64,000 nt of DNA. It comes from an uncultured Gammaproteobacteria bacterium. GTDB lineage: Bacteria; Patescibacteriota; Microgenomatia; Daviesbacterales; UBA10151. The notes beneath the pieces were generated by a model. That model ran no database searches, was not told where the DNA came from, and worked only from the letters and a program-made list of their open reading frames with translations. The stretch lies in assembly GCA_964645555.1 (NCBI GenBank), contig CAZYBP010000001.1:759-64758 (forward strand). Direction: 5' to 3'. The position numbers and the translations under genes are program-made. Shown here piece after piece: positions 26,960 through 61,540 of the stretch (its first letter is position 1; each line of letters opens with the position of its first letter).

Positions 26960-27808
26960 ATGAATAATCAAAAACTTAAGTTTTTATACACTGATATTAA
27001 AGATTCGTACCTGGAATTATTGAAAGACACTTTAACTCATATAATTTATGGTAATTATGAGGTAGGTGCAACGCTCTCATCCCGTTTCCTGATCGAGAAA
27101 ATAATATCAAAGATATTGGGTCTAGTACATTTAAAATTAGTATTTAATAAACCTTTTAATCTCAAAGACAGAGAATATGGAAATGACTGGCCGCTAAGCG
27201 CTCACACAATGATTGGAAAAAGACGTCTAAATAATATTCAGTTCTGCATTGAGAATATCTTAAAGGAAAAAATCCCAGGAGATTTGATTGAAGCGGGCGT
27301 GTGGAGAGGAGGAGCCAGCATTTTTATGAAAGGAGTTTTAAAAGCATGCGGAGATAACAAACGGTGTGTTTGGTTAGCGGACTCGTTCCGGGGATTACCG
27401 CCTCCGGATATTAAAATGTACCCCCAGGATAAGGGAGATATTTTTTATCAAGTTGGTTACTTAGCTGTACCGGTTGAGGAGGTAAAAAATAATTTCAAAG
27501 CATACAACCTATTGGATGATAGGGTAAAATTTTTGATTGGATGGTTTAAAGATACATTGCCAAAAGCGCCTATAGGCAAACTTGCCCTTATCAGATGTGA
27601 TGGCGATATGTACGAATCAACTATGGATATATTAGTAAATTTATATCACAAACTTTCTACTGGCGGTTATGTAATTATTGATGACTATTATTATATTCCT
27701 GCATGCAAACAAGCAGTCGATGATTTTAGGAAAAAAAACAATATAAAAGACAAAATATTTGATATTACAGATATCAAAGGGGGAATATATTGGAAAAAAT
27801 TACAATGA
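26960..27808 (+). CDS. Macrocin-O-methyltransferase (TylF/MycF) family sugar O-methyltransferase
   Basis: GDLIEAGVWRGGASIF...WLADSFRGLP...CDGDMYEST...GGYVIIDDY reproduces the conserved blocks of TylF-family MTs. Confidence 0.8.
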   Translation: MNNQKLKFLYTDIKDSYLELLKDTLTHIIYGNYEVGATLSSRFLIEKIISKILGLVHLKLVFNKPFNLKDREYGNDWPLSAHTMIGKRRLNNIQFCIENILKEKIPGDLIEAGVWRGGASIFMKGVLKACGDNKRCVWLADSFRGLPPPDIKMYPQDKGDIFYQVGYLAVPVEEVKNNFKAYNLLDDRVKFLIGWFKDTLPKAPIGKLALIRCDGDMYESTMDILVNLYHKLSTGGYVIIDDYYYIPACKQAVDDFRKKNNIKDKIFDITDIKGGIYWKKLQ

Positions 27809-27827: not shown

Positions 27828-29930
27828 CTATTCCCATGGCCAAATTTTAAATAATATATCAATTGTATAATCTCCCTTATTGTCTATCAACCAACCATTG
27901 GCAAACCCATTAACTAAAAAATGTTTGTCTACTACCTGGTTATCGATCCGTGCTTGCCAAAAACCATTGTATGTATCATTTAAAACTAATACAAAAGGTG
28001 TCCTTGCCCCTACTTGGACCTTGAAACGGGTGGGAGATTTCTTTTCAAACACCAAATCAACTGAAGAATCTGAATTTTGGCTAAGCTCGCCTGAAGAGCC
28101 GATAGACTGGTAATTTTCTGTATCGACAAAAGCAGCCTCAGTTGTATCAAACCCGCCGCTGCTTATACTATTTAATGCCTGATCAATGGAATCAAATTCT
28201 GCCAAAGATGTCACTGCGAAGATTTCCGGCTTAACAATGCTTTTTTCTAAAGTGTAAACAGTTAAAGGCCCGAACTCTGCATCCTTAGTAATTTCCCGCC
28301 ACTGGTCTATTTTGACTGTATTTAAATCCAACTGAGGATAAATCATATCACGGTGCAAAATAATATGATCAACTCCCAAAAGTCCTAATGTCCTTGGTAA
28401 GAAATTCTGGGAGAGGTATTTGGGGATTAATATATAGTAGTTGTTAAAAGTAGGTACTGTTGAGCGGGAGACGTTTTGTGAGTCAAACAGATTTTCAGCA
28501 GGGTCCTGTCCAATATAACCCCATGAATATTTTAATAATTCTGCCTGTACTGAAACAGGCAGATGAAAAATTCTTTGGCTTGAATTTGAGTTCAAATAAT
28601 CATTAGCCTGGGTATAATACGGAGGAATTGTCAGCCTGTCTTTAGAAGGGAATATTCTACCATTCCACATCGGATAAACTAAAATGCCATATAATAAGAC
28701 TATCAAAAAAACTCTTAATACCCGGCCGCTTTTTCCGGTAAATTTCTTAAAAATGTAATTCAAACCAAGTGCAAAAAAGACTGAGTAAGGCAAAAGGAAA
28801 ACTAATCAAAATTTCTCATAGGGGTTTCTCAAAGCTGCGCTGAATGGGAATGTTGAAAAGATCACAGAAAAAAATTGGTATCCCAAAGGAAAGTTTGAAC
28901 CCTTACTGACAAACCAGCCAATCAGTAATAAACTAATTAAATATTTAAAATTTTTTTGGGTCTTTTCCTTTACAATACCCAGTATAACAATAGCCAAAAC
29001 AACTAAACTTATTAAGTAACTAAAGAAATTATTATAGAACTCAAACCATCCGGTACTTAAAGAGCTTCCCTTTTCAAAAAAAGCTTTCTGGCGCAGCATT
29101 AAAATATCGGTAGTTCCAAAGTATTTACTTACACCTATTAGTGACTCACGGTGTATTCTCCATTCCTCTGAAAACTTAGCTAAGGTAGCTCCCTGTGCAG
29201 TTGACTTGTGAATTAAAGGATAAATCCACCAGGTGTTGACTAAAACTGTCACAATAACCGTGAATATACACTTTAATAAAAGTTTTAATAAATAAGTTTT
29301 ATTTTTTCTATTTTGAATAAATTTAATAAGGGCATAAATACCTGCCACTGTTAGGTAAACAAACAAATATGCAGGATGGGAAAAAGCATGCGAGAATACT
29401 GTCATGCTTGCAGCAATAAAAATTAGCCAATAAATTTTACCCTCGTCCAACCATTTTATCCAAAGAAAGATAAACAGTGGCAGGTAAGCCCAGGGAAACA
29501 TGCCTTGATAAATGTTCCTTTTCCAAACCTGGGTCATGGAGTATAGATTAAGTAAGTAAAAAAAACTTCCTAGTATAGATATTAGCTTACTTTGTCCAAA
29601 ACCTTTGTAAAGCAAAAGGTACATAAAGACTACACCTGAAAACATGATTATCCAATATGAAAGTGCCTGAATCAAAAAGGGCGCAAATCCGGCCTTTTGA
29701 AACAAGCTCAAAAATGTCAGATAGGGAAATCTTACAAATTCAAAAATATTTACGCTACCTGTACCAGAAGGATACCAACTGCTAGAAAAATATTTTGCAG
29801 TTCTTTCAAAGTTAACAAAAGATAAATTCTCCTCACTATTGTTTGAAACAAAAGTTTTTGTCGAGAACCAGGAAAATATGATTATGAAAGTCACAAAAAA
29901 TGCAAGCAGTAAGAATGATCTGGTCTTCAT
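27828..29930 (-). pseudogene. Family-A membrane protein paralog (shortened) interrupted by in-frame TGA at a conserved Gly codon
   Basis: ORFs 28806..29930 and 27828..28793 are in the same frame. Sequence reads ...RNPYEKF-TGA-LVFLLPYS..., where intact paralogs have RNPFEK(F/I/T)-G-(F/L).... The C-terminal part keeps the FANGWLIDNKGDY motif but lacks the final TM anchor. Confidence 0.55.
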
Positions 29931-31178
29931 TTAAAATTGCAATATTGTACGGGTTGATAAAACTCTTTGTATTTCCTCTTGGCTTCTTTTAATCTCCCTC
30001 AAAATAATCTTGTGCGGTACTAAAACCACCAAAAGGTCTTTACCCAAACAAAGATTCAGTAGAGTCTTCGGATATTTTAAAGCGGAAACTAACGGATCAA
30101 AATGAGAAACAGTAATACCCCTCTTTTTTAATATTTTAACTACCTTAATTGCAGGACTCTCTCGGGTATCAGTAGAATCAACTTTATATGATGCTCCTAA
30201 AACTAGTACTTTAGGCTTTTTAATACCTCTTAGCTTGCTCGCTATGCGTTCTGCAATGTTAGCCGGCACTTGATCGTTAATTTTCCTTGAGGTTGAAATT
30301 AATTTTGAGTTTATCTGATCCACCTCATAAATGAACCAGGGATCTATAGGGATACAGTGTCCTCCGACGCCAATACCAGGATTTAAAATATTGACCCGTG
30401 GATGTTTGTTGGCCAAAGCAATTACTTTTCGGGCTTCTACACCTAAATTTTTCGCGGTTTGGGCAAACTCATTTGCCAAAGCAATATTTACATCTCTAAA
30501 AGAGTTTTCCATCAATTTGCAAAGTTCCGCACTTACTATATCTGTTTTGTATATGTTCCCTTTGACAAAGGACTTGTAAACTTTCTCAGCAAGCTGGCAG
30601 GATTTCTCATCTACACCTCCGATAATCCTGTCATTATGGACAATTTCATAGTAGATATTTCCCGGTAAAATCCGTTCCGGGCAATGCGCTAGGGAAATAT
30701 CTTTACCGGCAATAAGTCCGGTTTTTTCCAGAATTGGTATTGCTAAATTGTTACAAGTATTAGGAGGAATTGTGGATTCAATAATCACCAAATCACCTTT
30801 TTTTAAAAATGGTATGGTTGCCTCTAAGGCTTTTTTCACAAAAGAAAGATCTGCCTTTTTTTTGTTATGAAGCAGCGGGGTTGGAACTGTTATGATAAAA
30901 GTATCTGCTTGAGTCGGAGTCTGCCTTAAAAACAAATTTTTCTTTACTTTAGGGTTTTTTAATAAACGCTGCAGTTGGCTTTCCTGAACTTGAGGCGGCA
31001 ATAAACCATTTTTTAAACCGTCAATTACCTTCCTATTAATATCTACCCCAATAACTTTGTAGCCCGCTTTGGCAAGAAGCAAGGCTGCAGGCAAACCTAC
31101 CACCCCTAAACCCAAAACTACAACATTACTTTTTTCCATATACCTCTCTTTGCCATTCAATTGTTTTCGGTATTCCAA
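29931..31178 (-). CDS. Nucleotide-sugar dehydrogenase (UDP-N-acetyl-D-mannosamine dehydrogenase WecC-like / Ugd family)
   Basis: N-terminal Rossmann motif VVVLGLGVVGLPAALLLA, catalytic GGHCIPIDP, about 415 aa. The start may be the internal Met (MEKSNVVV...). Confidence 0.7.
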   Translation of the reverse strand: MEYRKQLNGKERYMEKSNVVVLGLGVVGLPAALLLAKAGYKVIGVDINRKVIDGLKNGLLPPQVQESQLQRLLKNPKVKKNLFLRQTPTQADTFIITVPTPLLHNKKKADLSFVKKALEATIPFLKKGDLVIIESTIPPNTCNNLAIPILEKTGLIAGKDISLAHCPERILPGNIYYEIVHNDRIIGGVDEKSCQLAEKVYKSFVKGNIYKTDIVSAELCKLMENSFRDVNIALANEFAQTAKNLGVEARKVIALANKHPRVNILNPGIGVGGHCIPIDPWFIYEVDQINSKLISTSRKINDQVPANIAERIASKLRGIKKPKVLVLGASYKVDSTDTRESPAIKVVKILKKRGITVSHFDPLVSALKYPKTLLNLCLGKDLLVVLVPHKIILREIKRSQEEIQRVLSTRTILQF

Positions 31179-32055
31179 CAGACAAGGGTGTCATACTTGC
31201 ATGCTTTAAATCCTTTACCGCCTTTTTTATATTGGATTTTTTGTCTTTTGTGTTGTGTTTTTCAAACTGTACGTATTTAACAAGTTTATCTGTTTTACCC
31301 AAATACGCAAGTATCATATCGGATAAACTTTTAATATCGTGATACTGCGTTCCGGCAATATTATAAACCTCACCGGGTTTGAAATTCTTAACAATGTTTG
31401 CCAAAGTTTGGACTGTATCATCTATATAGGAAGAGGTCCGGTGGTGATTAAGATACACTGTATAGGGCAAATCAAAAAGAGCCTTATAGATAAATTGGCA
31501 TATTACACTACGGTACTCCGAAAAGTATTCCCCCGGGCCATAAGTATTAAAGAGGCGAACTCGGACAGTTTCTGTCCCGAATCTATCTGCAGAGTTTAGA
31601 ATCTGCATCTCATTTACCCATTTCGAAATAGCATAATCGTTCATTTGCCTGATTGGATGCTTACTTATTACATCCTCCCCCATTACATCCGGCCAATCTC
31701 CATACACCTCACTGCTGCTTGCAAAAATCATTTTAAATTTATTTTTCTCCTGAAATCTTAAGATGTTTTTAGTACCTATTGCATTACTTTTCCAAAGCCG
31801 TCCGTAGTAATCTTCACCGTTATGTCTTCCAAATTCAGCAGCCAAATGGTAAACAAAATCAAAGTCCGATCTCTCAAACAAATGTTCAACCTCACGGTAT
31901 TCACTCACATCGCAACGTATATAATTTGGTCCCCCGCTGTGCAAAAGATCACATACCCAAACTTCATGCCCCCCGTCACGCAGTAATTTGACTAAAGGAG
32001 CGCCAACAGCTCCTAATCCTCCGGTTACCAAAATTTTTAGTTTCTTTTTAGACAT
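31126..32055 (-). CDS. NAD-dependent epimerase/dehydratase (extended SDR)
   Basis: ILVTGGLGAVGAPLV glycine-rich NAD motif, 309 aa. Confidence 0.65.
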   Translation of the reverse strand: MSKKKLKILVTGGLGAVGAPLVKLLRDGGHEVWVCDLLHSGGPNYIRCDVSEYREVEHLFERSDFDFVYHLAAEFGRHNGEDYYGRLWKSNAIGTKNILRFQEKNKFKMIFASSSEVYGDWPDVMGEDVISKHPIRQMNDYAISKWVNEMQILNSADRFGTETVRVRLFNTYGPGEYFSEYRSVICQFIYKALFDLPYTVYLNHHRTSSYIDDTVQTLANIVKNFKPGEVYNIAGTQYHDIKSLSDMILAYLGKTDKLVKYVQFEKHNTKDKKSNIKKAVKDLKHASMTPLSVGIPKTIEWQREVYGKK

Positions 32056-33214
32056 AATTTAAAACCCTTGATATATTCTTATCAAATAATTTACCACAAT
32101 CAAACTGACTAACAAAATTTAAAGCATTTTCTCTGTACTCTTTTAATAATTTCCTATCAGATAGAAGTTTAATTACCGCCTTTGTTAAATCCTCTTTTTT
32201 ATAATTAACAACTAATCCTGACCTGGTTTTAATAATCTGTTTACTATAAGAAACAGCACAGGTAGTGATAACCGGCATACCCATTAACATATAATCTTTT
32301 ATTTTACCGGGATCGCCGTTTTTTACCCTGTCGTCGGTAATTTTAGTATTGAAAGTGGCAATACCTAAGGCTCCGTCAGACATGCACTCTTCAAGTATTT
32401 TTCTGTCTTTTACCCAACCATAAAATTTTACGCAACCGCCAACCTTAAGTCTTTGTACTTCACTTTCCAAATGCGCTCGATATTGCCCGTCGCCAAAAAT
32501 TTCTAAAACTGCTCCGGGGATTTTTTTAACTATTTGGGGCATGGCATTGATTATCAAATCAACTCCCATCCAATCAAAAAGAGACCCCCTATAAACAATT
32601 TTTTTTGTGTTTATTTTATTAAATGGTAATCTTTTAGTTTTATTAACCCAGACACAGATGGGAAAAACATACTGTTTGGCATCTCTTTTTAATCCCATCC
32701 TTTTTTCTCTTGCATCAATCATATATTCTGAAACATTCCAGGTTTCATCCGCATACTGGACACAAATCTTATCAAATTGGAAATAAAGCCAATTTAAAAA
32801 TTTATTATCAAATCTGGTAGGCTCATAATCAACCGGGTGATAAATAACTTTCCTTATTTTTCCCATTTTTTTCAGAAGCAATGCTACTAATACATTAATA
32901 TTATTTATTCCAAAAAAAGCATCCCAAATACCTTCATACTTTAAACACCAAAGAAATGTATATACCATATCTTTTAAATGAAGTAGCGGTCTCGGCATAA
33001 CCCAATGAAATGCATTTTTCTTTATGATTAATTTACTGTTTTTAAAATATTCAAACCGCGAACTTCCTTTATAGCTTTCTTTATTCTCAAGTAACGGATG
33101 ACCTATTAGGAGTAATTCCGTGGAGTATTTCTCCAGCAGATATTCTTTAATGTGTTCACCGATGTAACAAGGCAAAGTCTCATGGTAAGCAATAACCACT
33201 CTATATTTTTTCAT
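32048..33214 (-). CDS. Glycosyltransferase, GT-B fold (GT4-like)
   Basis: C-terminal domain of GT4 type (…EIFGDGQYRAHLESEVQRL…GMPVITT). Starts MKKYR with the shared 5' cassette. Confidence 0.6.
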   Translation of the reverse strand: MKKYRVVIAYHETLPCYIGEHIKEYLLEKYSTELLLIGHPLLENKESYKGSSRFEYFKNSKLIIKKNAFHWVMPRPLLHLKDMVYTFLWCLKYEGIWDAFFGINNINVLVALLLKKMGKIRKVIYHPVDYEPTRFDNKFLNWLYFQFDKICVQYADETWNVSEYMIDAREKRMGLKRDAKQYVFPICVWVNKTKRLPFNKINTKKIVYRGSLFDWMGVDLIINAMPQIVKKIPGAVLEIFGDGQYRAHLESEVQRLKVGGCVKFYGWVKDRKILEECMSDGALGIATFNTKITDDRVKNGDPGKIKDYMLMGMPVITTCAVSYSKQIIKTRSGLVVNYKKEDLTKAVIKLLSDRKLLKEYRENALNFVSQFDCGKLFDKNISRVLNYV

Positions 33215-33290
33215 AAAAATTCAAGATACTTCTTCTATTTTTTCATAAAAATTCAAGATTCTTCTTCTATTTTTTCATAAAATTCAACTA
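33206..33290. repeat. Tandem 32-nt repeat (about 2.6 copies) spanning the wecB stop / GT4 start junction
   Basis: The unit ttttttcataaaaattcaagatWcttcttctattt occurs at 33206-33240 and 33238-33272, with a partial third copy to 33290. On the coding strand each unit carries ...TAGAAGAAG.ATCTTGAATTTTTATGAAAAAA. The copies encode both the C-terminal YEKIEEES of the epimerase and the MKK start of the next gene. Confidence 0.6.
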
Positions 33291-34344
33291 ATGTTTTTAC
33301 TATTAGTTGGCCTGAATTACCTTTACCAAAAACGTTTTTCTTCCAGTAAACCTTTCCTTTTCTATATGCATCAATTGCCTTCTTTAATTTATCTTTGTTT
33401 AAACCAACCAAAAAATTGGCAGTTAAAGTCTCTGGCCTTTCGGTAGATTCCCTTAAGGTAATGAGCCATTTTTTCAATATATATGCCTCTTCCTGAATAC
33501 CGCCCGAATCTGTCAAGATAATATGCGAGAAGTTTATCAAAGTAAGCATATCTAAATAATTTATCGGTGGAAATGTTTTTATTTTCTTGTCCAATTTAAT
33601 TTTATTTAATTTCAAACGCTTATATGTATGGGGATGTATCGGCCAAATAATTTCCCTGTTTAAAAAGCTTATTGCATATTCAAACAATAAAATAAGCTGC
33701 TTAAGACGATTTATATCGTCGACATTTTCTGTACGGTGTGCAGTAACCAGAATATAATTATTTTTTTTCAAACCTAACTTTTCTAAAATATCAGACTTTT
33801 CTCCAGCATCAAAGTGTTTTCTCAAAGCATCAACAATAGTATTACCCGTGACAAATATCCGTTCTTTGGCTATACCATCACGCAGTAAGTTTTCTTTTGT
33901 ACCTTTTGTTGGAGCAAATAATATATCACTAATTTTGTCGGTAATAATTCTGTTTATCTCTTCAGGCATTTTATTATCAAAGCTTCTAAGTCCTGCCTCA
34001 ACATGCGCTACTGCTATATGTAGCTTTTTGGCAGCCAGTGACCCTGCCAGCATTGTATTAGTATCCCCATGAACAACTAAAATCTTCGGTCTCTCTTCTT
34101 TTAAAACCCTCTCCACTTCTATCATAATTTTTCCTGTTTGCTCGGCATGGGAGCCTGAACCAATGTTAAGTGTATAGTTAGATTTGGGAAGAATTAAATC
34201 ATCGGTGATATTTTTATTAAGCTCATCAGAATAATGCTGACCGGAATGTATTAAAATATACGGCAATTTTTTTAGCTCTAATTCCTTAATGACAGGAGCC
34301 AGTTTTATAAACTCAGGCCTGGTCCCAAAAAGTACCGCAATCAT
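33253..34344 (-). CDS. wecB: UDP-N-acetylglucosamine 2-epimerase (non-hydrolysing; WecB/MnaA family)
   Basis: MIAVLFGTRPEFIKLAPVI...IHSGQHYS...HVEAGLRSFD, near-diagnostic for the family. Confidence 0.85.
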   Translation of the reverse strand: MIAVLFGTRPEFIKLAPVIKELELKKLPYILIHSGQHYSDELNKNITDDLILPKSNYTLNIGSGSHAEQTGKIMIEVERVLKEERPKILVVHGDTNTMLAGSLAAKKLHIAVAHVEAGLRSFDNKMPEEINRIITDKISDILFAPTKGTKENLLRDGIAKERIFVTGNTIVDALRKHFDAGEKSDILEKLGLKKNNYILVTAHRTENVDDINRLKQLILLFEYAISFLNREIIWPIHPHTYKRLKLNKIKLDKKIKTFPPINYLDMLTLINFSHIILTDSGGIQEEAYILKKWLITLRESTERPETLTANFLVGLNKDKLKKAIDAYRKGKVYWKKNVFGKGNSGQLIVKTLVEFYEKIEEES

Positions 34345-34379
34345 AAATGGTATTATACATTAACAATAGAGGATATAAT

Positions 34380-36716
34380 ATGCTCTCCATGATACCTTTA
34401 CTGTATCTAATTTTATTAACAGTTACTCTCATCGGCACTGTATTATCCCGAAGCCTCATTGATGAAAAAAGACTTTTTATTAATATTCCTGTAGGGATGA
34501 TTTTAGGGACTAGCCTCTATATTTTTTTACTGAATATATTTTCAAAGTTTTTTCCGGGTCAGATGGGCATCATTTTTTCCACAATCAGTCTATTGCTGAT
34601 AGCAATATTTACTTCCTTTTTCCACTATAAAAAAATTATTAATGTTAAATGGCCAAAGCTTCTAAATATATTACTTCTTCTGGTTATAACAATTCCAGTT
34701 ATTTATTTTGCAAGACTCAAGATGACTTCAGTTTTTCCCGTAGCAGATTCTGACATGCAGTGGGCTTATGCTGCCAGTTTCACAAGAGGCAATTATCCGC
34801 TAAAAGTTCCCTGGCAACCTGATTTGACTCCAAATTATCATCTTGGGGCATATTTTTTTGAAGGAGCATTATTGACTCTTACCGGCTTACCTTTAATAAC
34901 TATACACTCTGTGTTAAATGTTTACTTTTTAATAGCGGGAGTTTTATTTGCAATTTTTCTTTTTTGGGAAAAAAACCGATTTCAAAACATTTGGCTTATT
35001 TTGGCTTCCATCGTAACTTATATATCCTTTGGAGTATTAATATTAATATTACCAAGTCAAAATTTTTTTCAGGTTTTAGATATCCACTCTCTCTTTAATG
35101 CAATTACACAACTTCCCTATTTGTGGGCAAAAGGAACTGCAGGGGCAGCTTTAGTTGACCTCAATTCATTGAGTTATCTGCCTGCCCGTTCGCTTGGTAT
35201 TGGGTTGGCTTTTTTAGCTTATTATTTTACTTTCATACCCTTTAGAAACTCAAAAATAAAGATTTTGTCCTTCGTTTTACTTTTTTCTGTTACTGCCTTG
35301 GTTGAGGAATCGGTATTTCTACCGTTATTTTTAACCTTAGTGTCAATATACCTGCTATCCCTTTTACAATTCCTCCCCTCCCTTAATGATTTAAAAAAAC
35401 ATAGCAAAGGTTTATTAATAACAATTTCTGCCATAGCCGTTACCGTCTTACTACAAGGCGGATTTGTCTCGGATTTATTAACTCAAAAAGGCTCGGCTTA
35501 TAATATCCTCCTGCCTCTTTCTAAGTCTTTTTTGGACAGATTCCCTGCAAGTTTTTCTATAATGCCTTCAATCTCAACACCATATAATTTACTGATCCTC
35601 TCCCCATTTATTCTTTCAGTGATAGTTTTGGTTTATTCCATTTTCAAAAAAAGAAGAAACTTGGCCGTTTTCTGCCTTTTTTCTTTAGTTTCTCTTTTCT
35701 CCTATTTGACAATTGAATATAAATATTCTCCTACAAATAATATCAGGTTTTATAATTTTGCCTCCATTAGTTCAGGCCTAGCCTTCGTTTATTTTCTTTA
35801 TGATTTGATGAAGGATAGGTCTTTGTCAAAGAATCTTGTTGTGTTTTCCGTTTTAAGCTTTCTAATGCTTCCCTCATTTATACCGGAGATTATAAACCAG
35901 TCAAAACAACTTCAAACAGCCCGGATGAATGATAACCGCTCCAAAATATTAATATCTTCTCATCCTTTAACCCCTTTTGAAAAAATAAGTGATTGGGCAA
36001 ATAAAAATTTACCCCCGGATAGTAGGCTGGTAAGTATTGATACTGATATACCGTCTCCAAAACGGTCTGTGCAATTTCAATATAAAGGCCTATACACCAC
36101 TCTTGCCCCTCAATATATTCATACTACCCGTCCCGAACCAGGTACGGAGTATTTTGACCTCATATTGACCTTAAACCCTTCAATCCTCAAGCAAACAAAA
36201 ACGCAATATGTGTATATAGAATCAGAATCCGATGCATACAAACAACTGCCTAAATTTAGGAAAGATGAGCTGGAAGACGAAAACTATTTTGAAAAGTTAC
36301 AATCAGTGGATTACCAGGATAATCAAAAAAAGGAGATCTTTTTCAGATTATACAGGGTCCTCCCTCAATACTTAGATCCTCAAAGTGGCGTAAAAGAGAT
36401 TAATGAGGGAACATTAAGGACTTTAAACATTTTAATTCCTAACTTGTCTACTGTTTATATCTCAGATTATGGCGACCCGCCGCATTTTTCTTTTTGGTAT
36501 AGAATGGCCGTAGTCTTACAGTTAAAGGACAAACAAATCAGAAGAAATATCTCACAAACCGATTACCAGGCTATTGAGACTAACCTTATTTATACAACCG
36601 GAAATTCAAACCAAAGGTATGATTATTATATTTCAGCTCCCAATCAGAAGCCCTTCTTACCGGCAACACTTATCTGGTCAAATATTTATGCCTCGGCTTG
36701 GAAAATTGATGGTTGA
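34380..36716 (+). CDS. Family-C polytopic membrane protein with C-terminal soluble domain (GT-C-like candidate)
   Basis: About 12 TM helices. Conserved loop ADSDMQWAYAASFTRGN...WQPDLTPNYHLGAYFFEGAL is shared with 53137..55452. Start chosen at ATG 34380, preceded by AGAGGA. Confidence 0.6.
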   Translation: MLSMIPLLYLILLTVTLIGTVLSRSLIDEKRLFINIPVGMILGTSLYIFLLNIFSKFFPGQMGIIFSTISLLLIAIFTSFFHYKKIINVKWPKLLNILLLLVITIPVIYFARLKMTSVFPVADSDMQWAYAASFTRGNYPLKVPWQPDLTPNYHLGAYFFEGALLTLTGLPLITIHSVLNVYFLIAGVLFAIFLFWEKNRFQNIWLILASIVTYISFGVLILILPSQNFFQVLDIHSLFNAITQLPYLWAKGTAGAALVDLNSLSYLPARSLGIGLAFLAYYFTFIPFRNSKIKILSFVLLFSVTALVEESVFLPLFLTLVSIYLLSLLQFLPSLNDLKKHSKGLLITISAIAVTVLLQGGFVSDLLTQKGSAYNILLPLSKSFLDRFPASFSIMPSISTPYNLLILSPFILSVIVLVYSIFKKRRNLAVFCLFSLVSLFSYLTIEYKYSPTNNIRFYNFASISSGLAFVYFLYDLMKDRSLSKNLVVFSVLSFLMLPSFIPEIINQSKQLQTARMNDNRSKILISSHPLTPFEKISDWANKNLPPDSRLVSIDTDIPSPKRSVQFQYKGLYTTLAPQYIHTTRPEPGTEYFDLILTLNPSILKQTKTQYVYIESESDAYKQLPKFRKDELEDENYFEKLQSVDYQDNQKKEIFFRLYRVLPQYLDPQSGVKEINEGTLRTLNILIPNLSTVYISDYGDPPHFSFWYRMAVVLQLKDKQIRRNISQTDYQAIETNLIYTTGNSNQRYDYYISAPNQKPFLPATLIWSNIYASAWKIDG

Positions 36717-36732
36717 TGATAGTATATATAAA

Positions 36733-38151
36733 ATGAAAACTTATCAATTTGATGTAGTTATAGTTGGATCAGGACCTGCAGGAGTCCATGCTGCATACCC
36801 TTTAATTAAGGCGGGATTAAAAGTTGCTATTATTGACGGTGGTCTGGATAGCAAAAAGCAAGATAAGAAACTTAGCGATTTTTTAGATGTTCATTTCAGA
36901 GAAACAAGCAACGCGTACGATCTGATCAAACAAAGCAGTTATGTATTCAATAAAACCTACCAACTCCTAAAAATAAACAGTAATATCGAAATCATTCAAA
37001 GCTTAGCAAAAGGAGGATTGTCGCAACAATGGCATGGTATCAGTGATTTTTTCTCAAATAAGGAATTAGAAAGAATTGGACTACCATCAAACGAGATACA
37101 AGCTGAATATAAAGAGATAGCTAAACTTATAAAACTTAAATTGGAAGGAAATCTGGACTACCATGCTAAGGCACTTTTAAAAACTGCAGAGAGTAAGCCT
37201 AATCTTAAAGAGAAACTATACCGGGTCCCGCTCGCCTTTCCTTACCGAACCAGTTCTGATATTGAATATTTCAAAAAATTTAAAAACTTTACATATATCC
37301 CCAATCAATTAGTGTTTACAGTAAAGGATATTAAAACTTGTGTGAAAATTGAAAGCCGATCAATTAATAAACAATCTACACTACAAACTAAAGCAGGATA
37401 TGTAATTTTGGCAGCCGGCTCAATTAACACTACCAGAATATTACTAAGAAGCTTAAACCTATTTAACTACAAAACCACATTTTTAACTAAAGCTCATTAT
37501 ATTACCGCCTGTATGCATCCAAGGACTTTCTTACTCCGATCATCTGAAAAATACTTAAAAAAATCAGGATTAGGGCAACTTGTCATCGCTGATAAAAAAA
37601 TAGGTAAAGGAGTCGGTGCTTTTTTTATACAACTATATAGATTTAATCCGCTGGTGATACATAAAGTATTAAAGCATATTCCTTTACCCAAAATAATGGC
37701 ATTACCTCTAATGTCAATTTTTGCTCCCTTTTTAATGATAGCTGACATAAGATTTGCAGCTTCTGAATCGAAAAAGAGATTCTGTAGATTATTAAAAGAT
37801 GCCGATAAAAATGATGTTTTAGAAATTTCATTCCAAGAATCTTTAAAAGAAATGAAAAATCATGAAAGTGAGTTTGTCAAAATTTCCCGTCAGTTAAATT
37901 CCCTCGGGTTATTCCCTCTTAAGACGGTTAAGGACTACACCACCTCCCATTATGCCGGAGGGGTACCTTATATGAAAAATCCGGGTAAAATATCAGTTAA
38001 TTTAAACGGCAGGCTACACCAGGCAAACAGAATTTATGTTGCTGACTCTGCAAGTTGGCGGGCACTACCGGCTAAAGCACCAACCTTGACAATAATGGCC
38101 AACGCTGCCAGAATTGGTAAAAAAGTTTTAGCAAAATTAGCGTTACACTGA
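36733..38151 (+). CDS. FAD-dependent oxidoreductase (GMC-like)
   Basis: FDVVIVGSGPAGV Rossmann FAD motif at the N-terminus. C-terminal YVADSASWRALPAKAPTLTIMANAARIG resembles the GMC C-terminal signature. Confidence 0.5.
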   Translation: MKTYQFDVVIVGSGPAGVHAAYPLIKAGLKVAIIDGGLDSKKQDKKLSDFLDVHFRETSNAYDLIKQSSYVFNKTYQLLKINSNIEIIQSLAKGGLSQQWHGISDFFSNKELERIGLPSNEIQAEYKEIAKLIKLKLEGNLDYHAKALLKTAESKPNLKEKLYRVPLAFPYRTSSDIEYFKKFKNFTYIPNQLVFTVKDIKTCVKIESRSINKQSTLQTKAGYVILAAGSINTTRILLRSLNLFNYKTTFLTKAHYITACMHPRTFLLRSSEKYLKKSGLGQLVIADKKIGKGVGAFFIQLYRFNPLVIHKVLKHIPLPKIMALPLMSIFAPFLMIADIRFAASESKKRFCRLLKDADKNDVLEISFQESLKEMKNHESEFVKISRQLNSLGLFPLKTVKDYTTSHYAGGVPYMKNPGKISVNLNGRLHQANRIYVADSASWRALPAKAPTLTIMANAARIGKKVLAKLALH

Positions 38152-38174
38152 GTAATGTTCGCTATACTCAAATT

Positions 38175-39161
38175 ATGAAAAAAATTATTATTACAGGTGG
38201 CGCAGGTTTCATCGGCAGTAATCTGATTGATTCACTGTTAAAAGATAATCCCAGTATTCAAATCACTTGTATCGACAATTTCGATTCCTTCTATGGCAAG
38301 GATATAAAAATGCGCAATATAAAAAGACATCTAAGAAACCCTAGATTTAAACTGATAGAAGGAGATATACTCGATATTGACACTATAAAAAAACTTTACT
38401 CCGCAATAAAAAATAATCTAGATAAAAAAATTGACGCTATAGTGCATTTGGCGGCCAAAGTAGGAGTCAGGCCAAGTGTAGAAAATCCCGGAATCTATAC
38501 ACAAGTTAATATTGTGGGCACTCAAAACATGTTGGAATTGGCACGTCAGTTGCAATGTGAAAAATTTATTTTTGCTTCGTCAAGCAGCGTATACGGCTTA
38601 AACTCAAATTTCCCCTGGAAGGAAGAAGACCGTCTGCTTTTACCTGCCAGTCCTTATGCCCTTTCCAAAATTTCCGGAGAACTGCTTGGGTCTGTTTACT
38701 CTAGATTGTTCGGCATCCAGTTTATAGCCCTTAGACTATTTACTGTTTACGGTCCCAGACAAAGACCGGATTTAGCAATTCATAAATTCACAAAACTTAT
38801 CCTGCAAGGAAAACCCATTCATCTTTTTGGTAACGGAGAAAGCCTCAGGGATTACACTTATATTGATGATATTGTCAGAGGATTTAAGGCAGCGCTAAAT
38901 TATTCATCCTCAAAATATGAAATTATCAATTTAGGCAATAACAAACCTATCAAACTAATCGAGCTTATATCTCTACTGGAAAAAGTGATAAAAAAGAAAG
39001 CAATCATTAAAAAAAGGCCAAATCAGGCAGGAGACGTACCTCTGACTTTTGCTGATATAAGCAAGGCTCAAAAGCTGCTGGGGTATCTGCCAAAAAATAA
39101 TGTAAAAGCCGGTCTGCAAAGATTTTTCAATTGGTTTAAAAAACAAAATATTCAATTATGA
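38175..39161 (+). CDS. NAD-dependent nucleotide-sugar epimerase (UDP-glucuronate 4-epimerase-like extended SDR)
   Basis: IIITGGAGFIGSNL, catalytic YALSK, and TVYGPRQRPDLA resembling the TVYGPWGRPDMA block of UDP-GlcA 4-epimerases. Confidence 0.6.
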   Translation: MKKIIITGGAGFIGSNLIDSLLKDNPSIQITCIDNFDSFYGKDIKMRNIKRHLRNPRFKLIEGDILDIDTIKKLYSAIKNNLDKKIDAIVHLAAKVGVRPSVENPGIYTQVNIVGTQNMLELARQLQCEKFIFASSSSVYGLNSNFPWKEEDRLLLPASPYALSKISGELLGSVYSRLFGIQFIALRLFTVYGPRQRPDLAIHKFTKLILQGKPIHLFGNGESLRDYTYIDDIVRGFKAALNYSSSKYEIINLGNNKPIKLIELISLLEKVIKKKAIIKKRPNQAGDVPLTFADISKAQKLLGYLPKNNVKAGLQRFFNWFKKQNIQL

Positions 39162-41014
39162 TATTTGTCCATCCAAAGAGCCAATATTAAAAGGGCAAAA
39201 ATATTATTGTCATAACTTAAATTTGTATTAAAATAATTATCCAAATAAACTTTTAAATTCTGTTTTTCAAATATTTTGCCGACCATGCTAGAATTCATAA
39301 TTTTGTTTATAAGATAGTTTTTCAGCTTTCCTTTAAACCACTTATTTTGCGGAATATTGAAACCGTGTTTAGATCTATAAATTATTTCTTGGGGCAAAAG
39401 TTTTTTTCTGAGTGCAATTTCTTTAAGGATTTTCTTTTTTGTTATAAGATTGAATTTCTTATCCGAAGGCATAGCAGCTACTTTCTCCATTAAAGCATGA
39501 TCTAAAAAAGGTGACCGGAGCTCTAATCCGAATGCCATTGAGGCGCTGTCGGTTTTATATAGTAAATCATCCGGCAAGTAGGTATTGATGTCAAATTTCA
39601 ATGCGTTATCCAAAATATCCAGGTTTTTATCATAGAGTTTATGGAAAATTTCAAAAGTATCATTTTTATTTACCGTTTCTTTAAAAAAATTAGTATAAAG
39701 ACTGCTTTTTACTTTATTTGTAAAAAATGAATTATAATTTACATATCTTCTGTAAAATGAATCCTCCAAAGTCACCATAAATCTGGCCATTCTTTCGGTC
39801 TGTTTACTCTCATATAATAAATGAGCAGATTTGGCTGTTAGAAGCAGCGATTTTTTTATAAACTTTGGTAATTTGGAAAACAATTTGGATATACAGGCAA
39901 TTGTATACCTGTCATAGCCGGCAAAATTCTCATCTCCACCGTCTCCGGTTAAAGCTACTTTGACTTTGCTGCTTGCCAGTTTTGAAATTAGCATTGTCGG
40001 AAGTATAGAATTATCACTTATAGGTTCATCATAAATTTCCCCAATTTCATCTATATTAGTTATTAAGTCCTTATCAGTTACATTAAGTTGAGTGTGACTC
40101 GTTTTATAAAGCCTGGATACTAATTTAGCATAGCCACTTTCATCAAATCTCTTATCATTAAAACCTATGCTAAAAGTATTAATCCTTTGAGATGAAAATT
40201 TGGACATTAAACTAACGATAATACTGGAATCAAGTCCTCCGCTTAAAAGGACACCGACCGGGACATCGGAAATTAAATGTGATTTAACACATTTCTCCAA
40301 CTCATCGAATACAAGATCACACCATTGTCCATCTGATAAATTTAATTTTTTGCCAAAATTTAACGACCAATATCTATGTATAGATAATTTATTTTCTTTA
40401 TATAAAAAGAAGTGCCCTGATGGTAATTTATAAATATCCTCAAATCCGGTTTTGGGAGCAGGAACATATTGTAATGTCAAAAAATCATCAATTGCTACAT
40501 TATCTATATCAGGTTTAAAAGCAAGCAAAGACATAATTGCTTTGATTTCGGAAGCAAAAATAAATTTGCCACCATTTATATAGTACTTCAAAGGTTTTTG
40601 ACCTAATCTGTCTCTTGCCCCAAACAATAAATTATTTTTTCTATCAAAGATTACAAAACTAAACATACCGTTTAACTTTTCCAGACATTTCACTCCCCAC
40701 TCTTGATAAGAATACAGAATAACCTCTGTATCTGTTTGTGTTACAAAATGATATTTTTTTTCAAGTAATTTCTTAATTTCATTAAAATTATAAATTTCTC
40801 CATTGAATGTAATACAAAGTGTTTTGTCCTGATTGAACATGGGTTGATGTCCTTTGGAAGAAAGATCTATAATAGAAAGCCGCGTATTTCCTAGCGCCAC
40901 CCCGTCAAAATATTGTCCTCCATGGTCATCCGGACCACGATGGCTAATTGCTTCTATCGCTTTTTTAAGAGAAACTCTTTTTCTAAAACCTGCATAACCC
41001 ACTACTCCGCACAT
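39152..41014 (-). CDS. Asparagine synthetase B-like glutamine amidotransferase (AsnB/WbpS-type)
   Basis: MCGVVGY Cys2 class-II GATase start, SGGLDSS PP-loop, 620 aa. Confidence 0.85.
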   Translation of the reverse strand: MCGVVGYAGFRKRVSLKKAIEAISHRGPDDHGGQYFDGVALGNTRLSIIDLSSKGHQPMFNQDKTLCITFNGEIYNFNEIKKLLEKKYHFVTQTDTEVILYSYQEWGVKCLEKLNGMFSFVIFDRKNNLLFGARDRLGQKPLKYYINGGKFIFASEIKAIMSLLAFKPDIDNVAIDDFLTLQYVPAPKTGFEDIYKLPSGHFFLYKENKLSIHRYWSLNFGKKLNLSDGQWCDLVFDELEKCVKSHLISDVPVGVLLSGGLDSSIIVSLMSKFSSQRINTFSIGFNDKRFDESGYAKLVSRLYKTSHTQLNVTDKDLITNIDEIGEIYDEPISDNSILPTMLISKLASSKVKVALTGDGGDENFAGYDRYTIACISKLFSKLPKFIKKSLLLTAKSAHLLYESKQTERMARFMVTLEDSFYRRYVNYNSFFTNKVKSSLYTNFFKETVNKNDTFEIFHKLYDKNLDILDNALKFDINTYLPDDLLYKTDSASMAFGLELRSPFLDHALMEKVAAMPSDKKFNLITKKKILKEIALRKKLLPQEIIYRSKHGFNIPQNKWFKGKLKNYLINKIMNSSMVGKIFEKQNLKVYLDNYFNTNLSYDNNIFALLILALWMDKYHN

Positions 41015-41075: not shown

Positions 41076-41933
41076 TCAATAAAAATTAAATCTTCTTAAG
41101 AAATCAAAAATTAAAAATCTTAGCCATACAGGAACCAAACCAATACTTAACTCCTGTAAAAAATTATAAAGCTTATCAGATGGTGTCATGTTATATCCAA
41201 GTATTAAAACAGCATTAAGCCGGATAAGGACGGTATTTTTAAGCTGTAAGTCATTTCTGGTTATAGAAACAGACTGTTTATGTATTCGGAGTTTTAATAA
41301 CGGCTTATTTAAGTTCATAAATTTTCCAATTTTACCAACCCGGAAATATAGTTCATAATCCTGACTTACTCTGATCACCTCATTATAGAGCTCTTTTTTT
41401 AAGACTTCAGCCTGCCAGATCGTTGCAGGATGCGCAAAGGGACTATACCTGAATAAATGTTTTCTTATGCTAATATCGTCAATATTGTATTTTCTTATAT
41501 GTTTATATCTTAACTTCGAATCACAGATTTCTATAAAGGATCCGCTCACCACTACATCCGGATTATCCTGCATAAGTTTTACTTGAAGCTTAAATCTCTC
41601 CGGGTAAGACCAGTCATCACCATCCATACGGGCAATATACTCTCCTTTTGAAAGTCTAATTGCCTTATTGAGGCTTTTACTCACTCCTAAATTATTTTTA
41701 TTTCTCCTTAGAACTATTCTTTTATCCTTTTTTTTGAAGGACTTTAAAATTTCAAAGGTACCATCATTACTGTCATCATCAATAATTATGAATTCAAAGT
41801 TGGCGTATGTTTGGTTCAAAATACTTTCTATAGCACTACCAACATATTGTTTAACATTGTATACCGGCATTATTACTGAAACCAAAGGTTTCCTATGATA
41901 TAACAGACTCTTTTTTTTATGCTTTTTTCTCAT
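41076..41933 (-). CDS. Glycosyltransferase family 2
   Basis: VSVIMPVYNVKQYV...IIIDDDSNDGT. Confidence 0.75.
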   Translation of the reverse strand: MRKKHKKKSLLYHRKPLVSVIMPVYNVKQYVGSAIESILNQTYANFEFIIIDDDSNDGTFEILKSFKKKDKRIVLRRNKNNLGVSKSLNKAIRLSKGEYIARMDGDDWSYPERFKLQVKLMQDNPDVVVSGSFIEICDSKLRYKHIRKYNIDDISIRKHLFRYSPFAHPATIWQAEVLKKELYNEVIRVSQDYELYFRVGKIGKFMNLNKPLLKLRIHKQSVSITRNDLQLKNTVLIRLNAVLILGYNMTPSDKLYNFLQELSIGLVPVWLRFLIFDFLRRFNFY

Positions 41934-42734: not shown

Positions 42735-43703
42735 TTAATATGTGATTGCTTTCTTATAATTTTTTGAAAACCATCTAACAGTTTCCTTTATCCCTTTTTC
42801 TATCGATGTTTTTGGCACCCAGCCCAAATGTTTTTTCATTTTGTCAATTCCAAAAATTTTATGCAAAGCTCCGTCAGCTTTAGAGGTGTTATAGACTAAA
42901 ATTCCTTTGTACCCGATTACTTTCTGGATTGTCTCAGCTAATTCTTTCACTGAGATACCTATTCCTGTCGCTATATTCATTGGCTCAATATCGTTGTATC
43001 TTTCTCCTGCACGCAATATTCCTTCAGCCCCATCTTTAACATATAACCAATCTCTTACCGGTTTACCCGTTCCCCATACTTCCACCTGGGGAATTCTATT
43101 TACTTTAGCCTCATATATCTTTTTTATTAATCCGGCAAGAGCTTTACTCTGCTCCGGGTTAAAATGCTCTCCCGGCCCAAACATATTGGCCATAATAAGA
43201 TGAATTGAATTAAAGTTATATTGTTTTTTTAATGCCAAACCGTACACAACTGAGGCCTTCCGTGAAAACCCGTAACTGAAAATGCTTTCATGAATTTGTC
43301 CATTCCAATAATCTTCCTCATTCATTTCACCCTCTTTCAAATATCCCGGATATGAGCATCCTGCCACAATATTAATAAATTTACCAACTCCTACTTTTTG
43401 TGCAACCTGCATAAGGTAAGACCCCATTAGTATATTATCCATAAATAATTCAGCTTGCCTGCCAACATGATAAGCAATCCCTCCCTGATTGGCGGCACAA
43501 TTAATAACAACATCTGGTTTTATTTTCTTAAAATATGACAGGCAAATCCCTTTTTTACGAAAATCTATTCCGTCTTTAGTTTTAGGAATAAATATTTTAC
43601 AAGGTACTTGTTTCAGGGAGTTGATGATATGAGAACCAAAAAAACCTCCTCCCCCGGTAATGACAATTTTTTTATGATCGTAAAACCCTCTATATTTTTT
43701 CAT
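42735..43703 (-). CDS. GDP-L-fucose synthase-like (GDP-4-keto-6-deoxymannose 3,5-epimerase/4-reductase family)
   Basis: The C-terminal half (WGTGKPVRDWLYVKDGAEG...TIQKVIGYKG...SKADG...GWVP) parallels E. coli Fcl blocks. Starts MKKYR with the shared 5' cassette. Confidence 0.55.
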   Translation of the reverse strand: MKKYRGFYDHKKIVITGGGGFFGSHIINSLKQVPCKIFIPKTKDGIDFRKKGICLSYFKKIKPDVVINCAANQGGIAYHVGRQAELFMDNILMGSYLMQVAQKVGVGKFINIVAGCSYPGYLKEGEMNEEDYWNGQIHESIFSYGFSRKASVVYGLALKKQYNFNSIHLIMANMFGPGEHFNPEQSKALAGLIKKIYEAKVNRIPQVEVWGTGKPVRDWLYVKDGAEGILRAGERYNDIEPMNIATGIGISVKELAETIQKVIGYKGILVYNTSKADGALHKIFGIDKMKKHLGWVPKTSIEKGIKETVRWFSKNYKKAITY

Positions 43704-43820: not shown

Positions 43821-44525
43821 ATGATTAAATTGGCGCCATCAATTAGTATAATAATACCCACCTATAATGAAGCAAGTAATATCGCCAAGATACTAAAGCG
43901 GACGAAAAAATTAGCTGATATTTACTCAATAGAAATTATAGTAGTTGACGGAGGCTCGAAAGACGGAACACCCGATATAGCAAAAAAAATAGGAGTCAAT
44001 AAACTAATTAAGCTTAAGCAAAGACGGGGAAAAGGAATTGATTTTTGGGAAGGAGTACAAGCTGCAAAAGGCGATTATGTAATCCAAATAGATGCTGATA
44101 TGCAATTTGATCCCCAGCAAATACCTTTATTTATAAAAGCATTTAATAAAGGAGCAGACGTAGTAATAGCCAGGAGGGAAAATTATAAAGAATCTCCTTT
44201 TTGGAGAACGATAGGAAATAAATCACTGTCACTTCTTACATCAATAGTTATAATGTATCGAATTCATGATGTTTTGGCAGGCTTTAAAGGGGCAAGGAGA
44301 GAAGTTATGCTTTCCTTAAAGCTAGAAGAGAAAGGTTTTATGTACGAGTCTGAGCTGGTTATTAAAACAATTAGAATGGGCTATAAATTAGCTCAAATTC
44401 CTGTCCGGTATCATAGGAGGGTGCACGAGAATTCAAAAGTTAATTTAATAAAAGACGGATTAGGATATCTCCGGTCAATCCTTTACTTTGGATTTATTAT
44501 TCCACCGCCACCCAAGCTATCTTAA
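43821..44525 (+). CDS. Glycosyltransferase family 2 (DPM1-like)
   Basis: ISIIIPTYNEASNI...VVDGGSKDGT. Confidence 0.75.
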   Translation: MIKLAPSISIIIPTYNEASNIAKILKRTKKLADIYSIEIIVVDGGSKDGTPDIAKKIGVNKLIKLKQRRGKGIDFWEGVQAAKGDYVIQIDADMQFDPQQIPLFIKAFNKGADVVIARRENYKESPFWRTIGNKSLSLLTSIVIMYRIHDVLAGFKGARREVMLSLKLEEKGFMYESELVIKTIRMGYKLAQIPVRYHRRVHENSKVNLIKDGLGYLRSILYFGFIIPPPPKLS

Positions 44526-44528
44526 ACT

Positions 44529-47633: not shown

Positions 47634-47637
47634 AGTG

Positions 47638-48615: not shown

Positions 48616-48616
48616 T

Positions 48617-61443: not shown

Positions 61444-61540
61444 ACAAAGGGTATGTTAGCATAATATAATACTTGGTACAACTATAAGCTAAACAATTTA
61501 TTGTTGAGTACTATTAAACCTCTATGCTATTATCATTTAA

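Follow-up and report, generated by a model that had tools for sequence, protein, structure and literature searches.

Which acid does an asparagine synthetase-like protein amidate when its gene lies in a surface-glycan locus of a bacterium with a tiny genome? The question is raised by a 64-kb stretch of DNA (the window, meaning the whole stretch that was analysed; G+C content about 35% throughout) from Candidatus Daviesbacteria, a tiny-genome groundwater bacterium of the candidate phyla radiation (CPR). The window encodes an AsnB-like protein of 620 aa that is 100% identical to a recorded Daviesbacteria protein. CPR bacteria, or Patescibacteria, are ultra-small episymbionts. Pfam and NCBIfam profile scans of 56 open reading frames (ORFs) of the window, leaving aside those at 61541-62389 and 62414-63583, revealed one glycan supercluster that fills it. 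Besides at least 12 glycosyltransferases of families 2 and 4 (GT2, GT4), the supercluster encodes a Wzx-like flippase, a carbamoyltransferase, numerous methyltransferases, several enzymes that modify nucleotide sugars and no fewer than four AftD-like GT-C membrane proteins.

A first-pass annotation of this DNA had joined the protein to a pathway for UDP-N-acetylmannosaminuronic acid (UDP-ManNAcA) and predicted an amidated 2-acetamido uronic acid. Our own best explanation, which we hold tentatively and which draws on sequence comparisons, is that the protein would be a WbpS-like, uronamide-forming amidotransferase of a surface-glycan pathway that works with its own GT2, and that its target would be a hexuronic acid of the glucuronic or galacturonic acid (GlcA/GalA) type.

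The AsnB-like protein as a candidate sugar amidotransferase

The protein matched the Pfam families Asn_synthase (277 bits) and GATase_7 (146 bits), and its gene carries a GGGGAG ribosome-binding site 9 nt 5' of the ATG. Its N terminus, MCGVVG, places the nucleophile Cys2 right after the initiator Met, and Cys2 occurs in 171 of 176 aligned family sequences. R45, N71, E73 and D95 align with the glutamine-binding R50, N75, E77 and D99 of Escherichia coli AsnB (initiator Met counted), which we take to be R49, N74, E76 and D98 in the literature numbering, and the PP-loop LSGGLDSS (256-263) is identical to that of E. coli AsnB. In the aligned columns, Cys2, the glutamine-binding residues and the PP-loop are invariant across the family. 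Because all these elements are present, the protein is probably a working glutamine- and ATP-dependent amidotransferase with intact glutaminase and PP-loop domains. If it acts as its family does, the N-terminal Cys2 domain would hydrolyse glutamine to ammonia, the C-terminal PP-loop domain would use ATP to adenylate a sugar carboxylate, and the ammonia would attack the acyl-adenylate, yielding the uronamide, AMP and PPi.

We placed the protein by NCBIfam scores, a shared motif and a neighbour-joining tree rooted on E. coli AsnB. Its top NCBIfam model was TIGR03108 (eps_aminotran_1), with 525.1 bits (245 for E. coli AsnB), whereas it failed the housekeeping AsnB model NF006949, with 299.4 bits against a cut-off of 499 (1050 for E. 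coli AsnB). Nine scanned relatives, including three bona fide TIGR03108 members, scored 281-334 bits with NF006949, a range into which the query falls. With TIGR03108, dehydrogenase-adjacent relatives scored 604-657 bits, and proteobacterial relatives 37-38% identical to the query scored 1078-1108 bits. The motif GDGGDENFAGY (357-367), the counterpart of GEGSDEVFGGY in E. coli AsnB, is common to the query, the dehydrogenase-adjacent relatives and the TIGR03108 members that pass the cut-off (L077, L069 and L084; L-numbers designate loci). Within this motif, Asp358 (TGDGGDE) sits where AsnB has the catalytic Glu348 (SGEGSDE), and Asp is found here in 169 of the 176 family sequences, TIGR03108 members above 1000 bits among them. 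In the tree, the CPR clade of the AsnB-like protein (at least 45% identity) was recovered with 100% bootstrap. Because of the TIGR03108 score of 525 bits versus 299 for the AsnB model, together with the GDGGDENF motif, a role in uronamide formation is the best reading of this protein, which is probably not a housekeeping AsnB; as the first-pass annotation had anticipated, it does not group with housekeeping asparagine synthetases.

We considered the aspartate-binding residues as a discriminator against asparagine synthesis and rejected them, since the acidic cluster of human ASNS (D-x-x-D-E) is largely kept and only the Glu to Asp change is informative; the equivalents of AsnB D351 and E352 are also kept in the query, so that the Glu348 test is only partly discriminating. 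WbuX, which had been named as another AsnB-like clade, we take to belong to a different PP-loop family. Among solved structures, the best match was 7YLZ (4.5e-46), a trichostatin hydroxyamidotransferase, which suggests that acyl substrates vary within the AsnB family; 1CT9 (1.3e-43), beta-lactam synthetase and CarA also matched.

WbpS of Pseudomonas aeruginosa, WbqG of E. coli O121 and PGN_1234 of Porphyromonas gingivalis have been placed in TIGR03108, and deletion of PGN_1234 abolishes the glucuronamide form of the P. gingivalis linking sugar (PMC7468200). Likewise, a wbpS mutant of Helicobacter pullorum installs an N-acetylhexosaminuronic acid (HexNAcA) instead of its amide (HexNAcAN), which its authors read as amidation at the level of the UDP-sugar (PMC6025236).

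A GT2 is the conserved partner of the amidotransferase

We gathered 166 related loci from metagenome look-ups, a genome collection and metagenome contigs, and compared their ORFs with the window proteins. A GT2 ortholog lies directly upstream of the AsnB-like gene, on the same strand, in 26 of the 27 distinct loci whose AsnB-like protein is at least 45% identical to the query, and in most of these the GT2 stop abuts the AsnB-like start. The exception is L102; L097 holds a frameshifted GT2 copy, and L089 and L092 hold GT2 fragments at contig edges. All neighbours other than the GT2 vary among these loci.

No transmembrane helix was predicted in the GT2 of the window. In the PDB, its residues 2-242 were closest to the C-terminal domain of K4 chondroitin polymerase (5.6e-32), which is the GlcUA-adding A2 site (PMC2889854), with heparosan synthase as the next match. 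NCBIfam gave sub-threshold matches of the GT2 to EpsE, TuaG and the glucuronosyltransferase AglG. These glucuronosyltransferase-like matches are a lead, not proof of donor specificity. We infer that the GT2 (41076-41933) most likely transfers a uronic acid residue, which could be amidated on the nucleotide sugar or after transfer.

Members of the wider family (36-44% identity), from many phyla, are encoded in glycan loci, often as two or three paralogs, and their genes repeatedly adjoin that of a uronate-forming dehydrogenase, which is of the Ugd/TuaD-like, TviB-like or WbpA/WecC-like subtype. A dehydrogenase was present within 9 kb in 11 of the 42 wider-family loci with full flanks, and within 3 kb in seven of these 11 (binomial p 0.04).

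Closer to the query, an ortholog of the neighbouring UDP-GlcA 4-epimerase-like short-chain dehydrogenase/reductase (SDR) of 328 aa, SDR328, was found within 3 kb of the amidotransferase in nine of the 14 loci with at least 60% identity, in four different arrangements, and the FAD enzyme encoded beside it (FADox) lies within the same distance in four of them. Among the 120 best homologs of the FAD enzyme, at least 17 come from a contig of the same length as that of a listed AsnB-like match. Homologs of SDR322 (39-41% identity), encoded by the first gene of the amidotransferase operon, occur near the GT2-AsnB pair in the clade with 45-59% identity. We also considered whether an SDR gene consistently follows that of the amidotransferase and rejected such a partner, as the SDRs found there in L001 and L005 show no relationship to one another or to any solved structure.

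Some loci also have two or three AsnB-like paralogs side by side (L033 at 4560-7976, L063, L083 and L077). In L033, from Peribacteria, the second AsnB-like paralog (30% identity) directly adjoins a relative of the GMC-fold flavoenzyme, likewise with 30% identity. In L001 and L004 (Levybacteria, Microgenomates), two sets of alpha and beta subunits of E1-type thiamine pyrophosphate enzymes, an SDR and a GT10 fucosyltransferase-like gene lie 3-6 kb upstream of the GT2-AsnB pair; these sets suggest a two-carbon branched-chain sugar pathway.

A hexuronic acid of the GlcA/GalA type as probable substrate

SDR328 is encoded next to the amidotransferase gene. Its best PDB matches were 5U4Q (1.3e-65) and the UDP-GlcA 4-epimerase (UGAepi) of Bacillus cereus (6ZL6, 4.9e-64), as compared with 1.4e-45 for WbpP. 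Aligned to 6ZL6, it keeps R88, S126-S128 (S127), the YxxxK pair Y149/K153, T178 and R185, and P85 is replaced by Val. Residues of this set position the substrate and hold its carboxylate in UGAepi (PMC12338863, PMC11519531). The 4-epimerase-like identity that the first-pass annotation had given to this gene is thereby strengthened, with the carboxylate-handling Ser/Thr residues and R185 kept. Because SDR328 is adjacent and the GT2 resembles GlcA transferases, a GalA/GlcA-type target is more likely; we favour it over ManNAcA, which is possible in this lineage. The carboxylate would be that of a hexuronic acid supplied via SDR328 (38175-39161) and, less likely, that of the product of WecB and WecC.

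Several observations weigh against a GlcA/GalA-directed uronamide synthase. The query does not reach the curated TIGR03108 cut-off (525.1 of 816.9 bits), the dehydrogenase-proximity statistic is modest, and the donor specificity of the GT2 is not readable from its sequence. No UDP-glucose dehydrogenase (Ugd) occurs among the 56 scanned ORFs, so that the source of UDP-GlcA is unseen, which leaves WecC as the one enzyme seen that would form a uronate. An SDR328 ortholog was found neither in the 45-59% clade nor in the Levybacteria locus L001, and most GT2-coupled loci have no dehydrogenase nearby. We know of no glycan chemistry for any CPR bacterium and, in the literature covered, of no characterisation of WbpS with purified substrates.

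Gene layout around the amidotransferase

The genes considered here form three transcription units (Table 1). The first runs on the minus strand from 34344 to 27828 (WecB-GT4-SDR309-WecC-GT-C), the second on the plus strand from 34389 to 39161 (membrane protein-FADox-SDR328) and the third on the minus strand from 43703 to 39152 (SDR322-SDR259-GT2-AsnB-like), with the amidotransferase as last gene. The 3' ends of the AsnB-like gene and the SDR328 gene are convergent and overlap by 10 bp, and distances of 4.8 kb and 8 kb separate the AsnB-like gene from WecB and WecC, respectively. All the ORFs named in the first-pass annotation are present where it had put them and belong to the families claimed, as judged from Pfam, NCBIfam and PDB matches. 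Its description of the amidotransferase as lying just downstream needs correction, as the gene belongs to a separate minus-strand operon and not to that of WecB and WecC.

All three modules recur in identical order in L172, where the membrane protein-FADox-SDR328 block spans 4471-9203, and the WecB-GT4-SDR-WecC block recurs in L093 with 67-80% identity. Given this recurrence in L093 and L172, the gene blocks are not due to chance. A promoter and terminator scan of 27.5-44.5 kb gave counts not above those of shuffled sequence and so lends no support to the operon boundaries; an Rfam scan of the window gave no matches.

Table 1. Genes of the three transcription units around the AsnB-like gene, with their coordinates in the window.
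Feature	Coordinates	Strand	Basis
AsnB-like (WbpS-like) glutamine-dependent amidotransferase, predicted, 620 aa	39152..41014	-	Pfam, NCBIfam, PDB matches, motifs
GT2 glycosyltransferase, 285 aa	41076..41933	-	Pfam Glycos_transf_2, 134 bits
Short SDR (SDR259), 259 aa	41951..42730	-	Pfam Epimerase and RmlD_sub_bind; orthologs in L095 (64%) and L172
GDP-L-fucose-synthase-like SDR (SDR322), 322 aa, first gene of its operon	42735..43703	-	NF047922, 210 bits, below the cut-off of 500
UDP-glucuronic acid 4-epimerase-like extended SDR (SDR328), 328 aa	38175..39161	+	PDB matches, conserved residues
GMC-fold FAD oxidoreductase (FADox), 472 aa, CPR-restricted family	36733..38151	+	AF2 model and Foldseek
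Polytopic membrane protein, 775 aa, first gene of its operon	34389..36716 (ORF from 34347)	+	Hydrophobicity
WecB-type non-hydrolysing UDP-GlcNAc 2-epimerase	33253..34344	-	TIGR00236, 370 bits
GT4 of the WecB/WecC operon	32048..33214	-	Pfam Glycos_transf_1; ortholog in L093 80% identical
Mth373-like SDR (SDR309), 309 aa, putative UDP-uronate decarboxylase or epimerase	31126..32055	-	PDB 9AR1/8W3U
WecC/Cap5O-like UDP-N-acetyl-hexosamine 6-dehydrogenase	29931..31139	-	TIGR03026, PDB matches
Two abutting ORFs, together like one AftD-like GT-C membrane glycosyltransferase, downstream in the WecB/WecC operon	27828..29930	-	GT-C_AftD profile

A public NCBI contig, JACPKN010000001.1 (32,148 bp, assembly GCA_016187055.1), spans only positions ~30867 to ~63004 of the window and breaks inside the dehydrogenase gene, the remainder of which is on a second NCBI contig of 12,473 bp. 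The window reads through this break with an intact ORF of 402-415 aa, and thus derives from a more contiguous assembly than JACPKN010000001.1.

The WecB/WecC operon and ManNAcA as a possible substrate

WecB passed its model, TIGR00236, with 370.4 bits against a cut-off of 210 (NeuC model, 95), confirming the 2-epimerase call. The dehydrogenase ORF (29931-31178, minus strand) probably starts at the ATG at 31139, as in the NCBI record, and not at the TTG at 31178. It scored 376 bits with TIGR03026, an NDP-sugar dehydrogenase subfamily model (cut-off 190), and its best PDB matches were Cap5O of Staphylococcus aureus (1.4e-98) and the UDP-ManNAcA dehydrogenase of Pyrococcus horikoshii (1.9e-86), as compared with 1e-23 to 1e-34 for UDP-glucose dehydrogenases. 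The enzyme, which had been left as WecC- or Ugd-like, is WecC/Cap5O-like and probably not Ugd; its best specific models were those of WecC, with 351 and 324 bits, both below their respective cut-offs of 750 and 459. It is the only UDPG_MGDP_dh protein among the scanned ORFs. Between WecB and the dehydrogenase there are indeed a GT4 and an SDR, as first described.

The SDR, SDR309, matched Mth373 of Methanothermobacter thermautotrophicus (PDB 9AR1/8W3U; E 8e-104, 350 bits) over residues 6-306. Mth373 was crystallised with UDP-GlcA and UDP-xylose was found; it has tentatively been called a UDP-xylose synthase, without a solution assay, and its authors consider that the decarboxylation may have been radiation-induced (PMC12820599). 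If SDR309 were to decarboxylate the WecC product, an N-acetyl-pentosamine would result and nothing would be left to amidate. UDP-XylNAc in B. cereus is, presumably, a precedent for such a branch.

These data bear on the model of the first-pass annotation, in which WecB converts UDP-GlcNAc to UDP-ManNAc, WecC oxidises this to UDP-ManNAcA and the AsnB-like enzyme amidates the uronate to ManNAcAN. Both WecB and WecC are well supported, WecC is the sole uronate-forming dehydrogenase in the scanned ORFs, the two modules lie side by side in three genomes of the Daviesbacteria-like lineage (window, L093 and L172), and the WbpS-type enzymes that have been characterised use 2-acetamido uronic acids as substrates (PMC7468200, PMC6025236). 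However, the genes belong to different transcription units, and WecB and WecC share theirs with a separate GT4 and with the Mth373-like SDR309, a possible decarboxylase or epimerase of the uronate. Moreover, WecB and WecC lie beside the amidotransferase only in those three genomes, and were not found within ~10 kb of it in L001/L088, L091, L095 or any locus of the 45-59% clade, whereas the GT2 pairing is near-universal. Any NDP-sugar dehydrogenase at all was present in just one of the eight loci with at least 45% identity and at least 9 kb on both sides. We consider this model unlikely and the original interpretation partly supported: the AsnB-like enzyme does have a WbpS-like family placement, whereas the coupling to ManNAcA is not conserved and the conserved partner is the GT2.

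SDR309 is strikingly close to the archaeal Mth373, and the neighbouring dehydrogenase scores best on an archaeal UDP-ManNAc dehydrogenase model, suggesting a sugar module that may be shared across domains, between archaea and CPR. At the end of the operon, two ORFs 12 bp apart within 27828-29930 match complementary parts of the GT-C_AftD profile (376-555 at 5.3e-11, and 55-305 weakly, at E 0.18); they resemble a single GT-C gene interrupted by a stop codon or a frameshift, or else a true two-gene form.

The flavoenzyme and other carboxylates

The FAD enzyme matched Pfam weakly (GMC_oxred_C, 25.3 bits against a cut-off of 24.6), with a GxGxxG motif at residues 12-17, and a PDB sequence search matched only its FAD-binding N terminus. 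Its AlphaFold (AF2) model (pLDDT 81.8) gave a bacterial pyranose 2-oxidase in Foldseek (7QF8; E 5.9e-22, TM score 0.70, probability 1.00), followed by other GMC enzymes with TM scores of ~0.7, namely C-glycoside 3-oxidases (7DVE/8QVE), fructose dehydrogenase and glucose dehydrogenase. Its identity to any characterised enzyme is 12-15%, and the 336 homologs found were all, apparently, from CPR metagenomes. The model thus points to a sugar-oxidising GMC fold, in keeping with the earlier proposal of an oxidoreductase that could act on a sugar hydroxyl. The 775-aa protein encoded upstream has ~12-14 hydrophobic segments followed by a soluble C-terminal region of ~280 aa, and gave no Pfam match even at E 5. 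A two-step epimerisation of the DprE1/DprE2 kind by FADox and SDR328 was considered and set aside, as SDR328 keeps all UDP-GlcA 4-epimerase residues checked except P85.

The amidotransferase might amidate or activate some other glycan carboxylate, such as a lactyl, pyruvyl or amino-acid substituent or an acid made by the flavoenzyme, or catalyse a non-amidating reaction of the AsnB family. The diverse acyl substrates of this family (the 7YLZ, beta-lactam synthetase and CarA matches), the lack of a nearby dehydrogenase at most GT2-coupled loci and the strong co-localisation of the FAD enzyme with the amidotransferase would all fit such a role. The intact glutaminase site, however, argues for ammonia transfer, beside the GT2-AsnB pair we identified no gene that would account for such a substituent, and the nearest curated family is uronamide-associated, making this alternative rather unlikely.

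More speculatively, the GT2-coupled AsnB-like clade, the CPR-restricted flavoenzyme, SDR328 and the polytopic membrane protein could together constitute a pathway, specific to CPR, that leads to an amidated and possibly keto- or oxidase-derived surface sugar not yet described, and in which the flavoenzyme, and not a Ugd-type dehydrogenase, would create the modified group. This would explain why most such loci have no NDP-sugar dehydrogenase, although we give the idea little credence at present.

Asparagine synthesis and peptidoglycan amidation

We also asked whether the protein could be a housekeeping asparagine synthetase that happens to sit in a glycan cluster. It passed the broad TIGR01536 model (461 bits, cut-off 267) and is named asparagine synthase at NCBI, its D358, D361 and E362 match the aspartate-binding cluster of human ASNS, and the 64 kb in view represent only part of a genome in which another asnB may or may not exist. 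Against these points stand the failed AsnB equivalog model, the replacement of Glu348 by Asp and the GT2 coupling, which is kept while other neighbours vary. In addition, relatives occur as two or three paralogs per glycan locus, also in the free-living Methylomicrobium and Desulfospira. A housekeeping function is consequently quite improbable.

Amidation of peptidoglycan (meso-DAP or D-Asp), as performed by the long AsnB paralogs of Firmicutes and Actinobacteria (AsnB, AsnB1, LtsA and AsnH), would agree with the similar length (~620-640 aa), the intact glutaminase domain and the presence of peptidoglycan in CPR bacteria, but it is very improbable given a partner that is always a GT2 inside polysaccharide loci and contexts in which no mur, ddl or pbp genes were seen.

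Other glycan genes in the window

AftD-like GT-C proteins are encoded at 10964-14386, 22488-25316, 27828-28793 and, with a weak match, 3679-6378, and three polyprenyl-phosphate GT2s resembling Dpm1, AglJ and PpgS at 43821-46380. A flippase (2188-3447), a carbamoyltransferase (19010-20710) and a TylF O-methyltransferase (26960-27808) were also found. The gene set of the window suggests extracytoplasmic glycosylation from lipid-phosphate sugars.

A minus-strand operon at 46377-50067 encodes an FdtA-like cupin, an extended SDR resembling 4,6-dehydratases, a GFO/IDH/MocA oxidoreductase and a sugar C-methyltransferase with a zinc-binding domain, and looks like a pathway for a branched or C-methylated deoxy sugar. 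Genes for two nucleotidyltransferases, a HAD phosphatase, a glycerophosphodiester phosphodiesterase (GDPD) and an inositol-monophosphatase-like protein are grouped at 58318-62389, and a comparable set (HAD, NTP-transferase, GDPD) is found after the amidotransferase gene in L005. This set may be a phospho-alcohol decoration module.

Significance

Uronamide formation by AsnB paralogs is already known; what is new is a CPR clade tightly coupled to one GT2 and, in part, associated with a CPR-restricted GMC flavoenzyme. CPR surface glycans presumably mediate host attachment, and the GT2-amidotransferase pair offers a concrete and inexpensive entry point to them, as it comprises two soluble enzymes suited to expression in E. 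coli. A first biochemical assignment would follow for many AsnB-like 'asparagine synthases' in genomes otherwise devoid of amino-acid biosynthesis, and an in vitro system would settle, for the WbpS family, whether amidation takes place on the nucleotide sugar or after transfer.

Comparison with known systems

The query shares with WbpS (P. aeruginosa O6), WbqG (E. coli O121), PGN_1234 and H. pullorum WbpS a two-domain AsnB architecture of ~620 aa with TIGR03108 as top model, the GDGGDENFAGY motif of TIGR03108 members, a location in a surface-glycan locus and relatives that abut uronate-forming dehydrogenases. It differs in its score of 525 bits (below 817) and in being 37-38% identical to the members that pass, the comparison being with the family model and not with the WbpS sequence. 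It also falls into a separate CPR clade (100% bootstrap), defined by the abutting GT2, and has no adjacent WbpO/WbpP-type pair.

With E. coli AsnB (1CT9) and human ASNS (6GQ3), the protein has in common the Ntn Cys, the glutamine-binding residues, the PP-loop and the D-E of the acidic cluster; unlike them, it is ~65 residues longer, with an insertion of ~100 aa before the C-terminal conserved block, and has Asp in place of Glu348. The TsnB9 hydroxyamidotransferase (7YLZ), the best solved match, is alike in its long AsnB-like architecture, but its genomic context is unrelated, it serves secondary metabolism and it retains the Glu (SGEAADE).

Among the sugar-nucleotide enzymes, SDR328 resembles the B. 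cereus UDP-GlcA 4-epimerase (6ZL6/6ZLA) over its full length (220 bits) and in R88, S127, Y149/K153, T178 and R185. The differences are Val for P85 and an operon shared with a GMC flavoenzyme and a membrane protein, with no Ugd seen in the window. Cap5O and E. coli WecC are the best PDB and NCBIfam matches of the dehydrogenase, and a WecB that passes its cut-off is encoded in the same operon; the dehydrogenase itself, however, stays below both WecC equivalog cut-offs (324/459 and 351/750), and its operon adds the Mth373-like SDR. This SDR is like Mth373, the activity of which is itself only inferred from the UDP-xylose in the crystal, over residues 6-306, and would differ from it in acting on what is likely to be an N-acetylated uronate.

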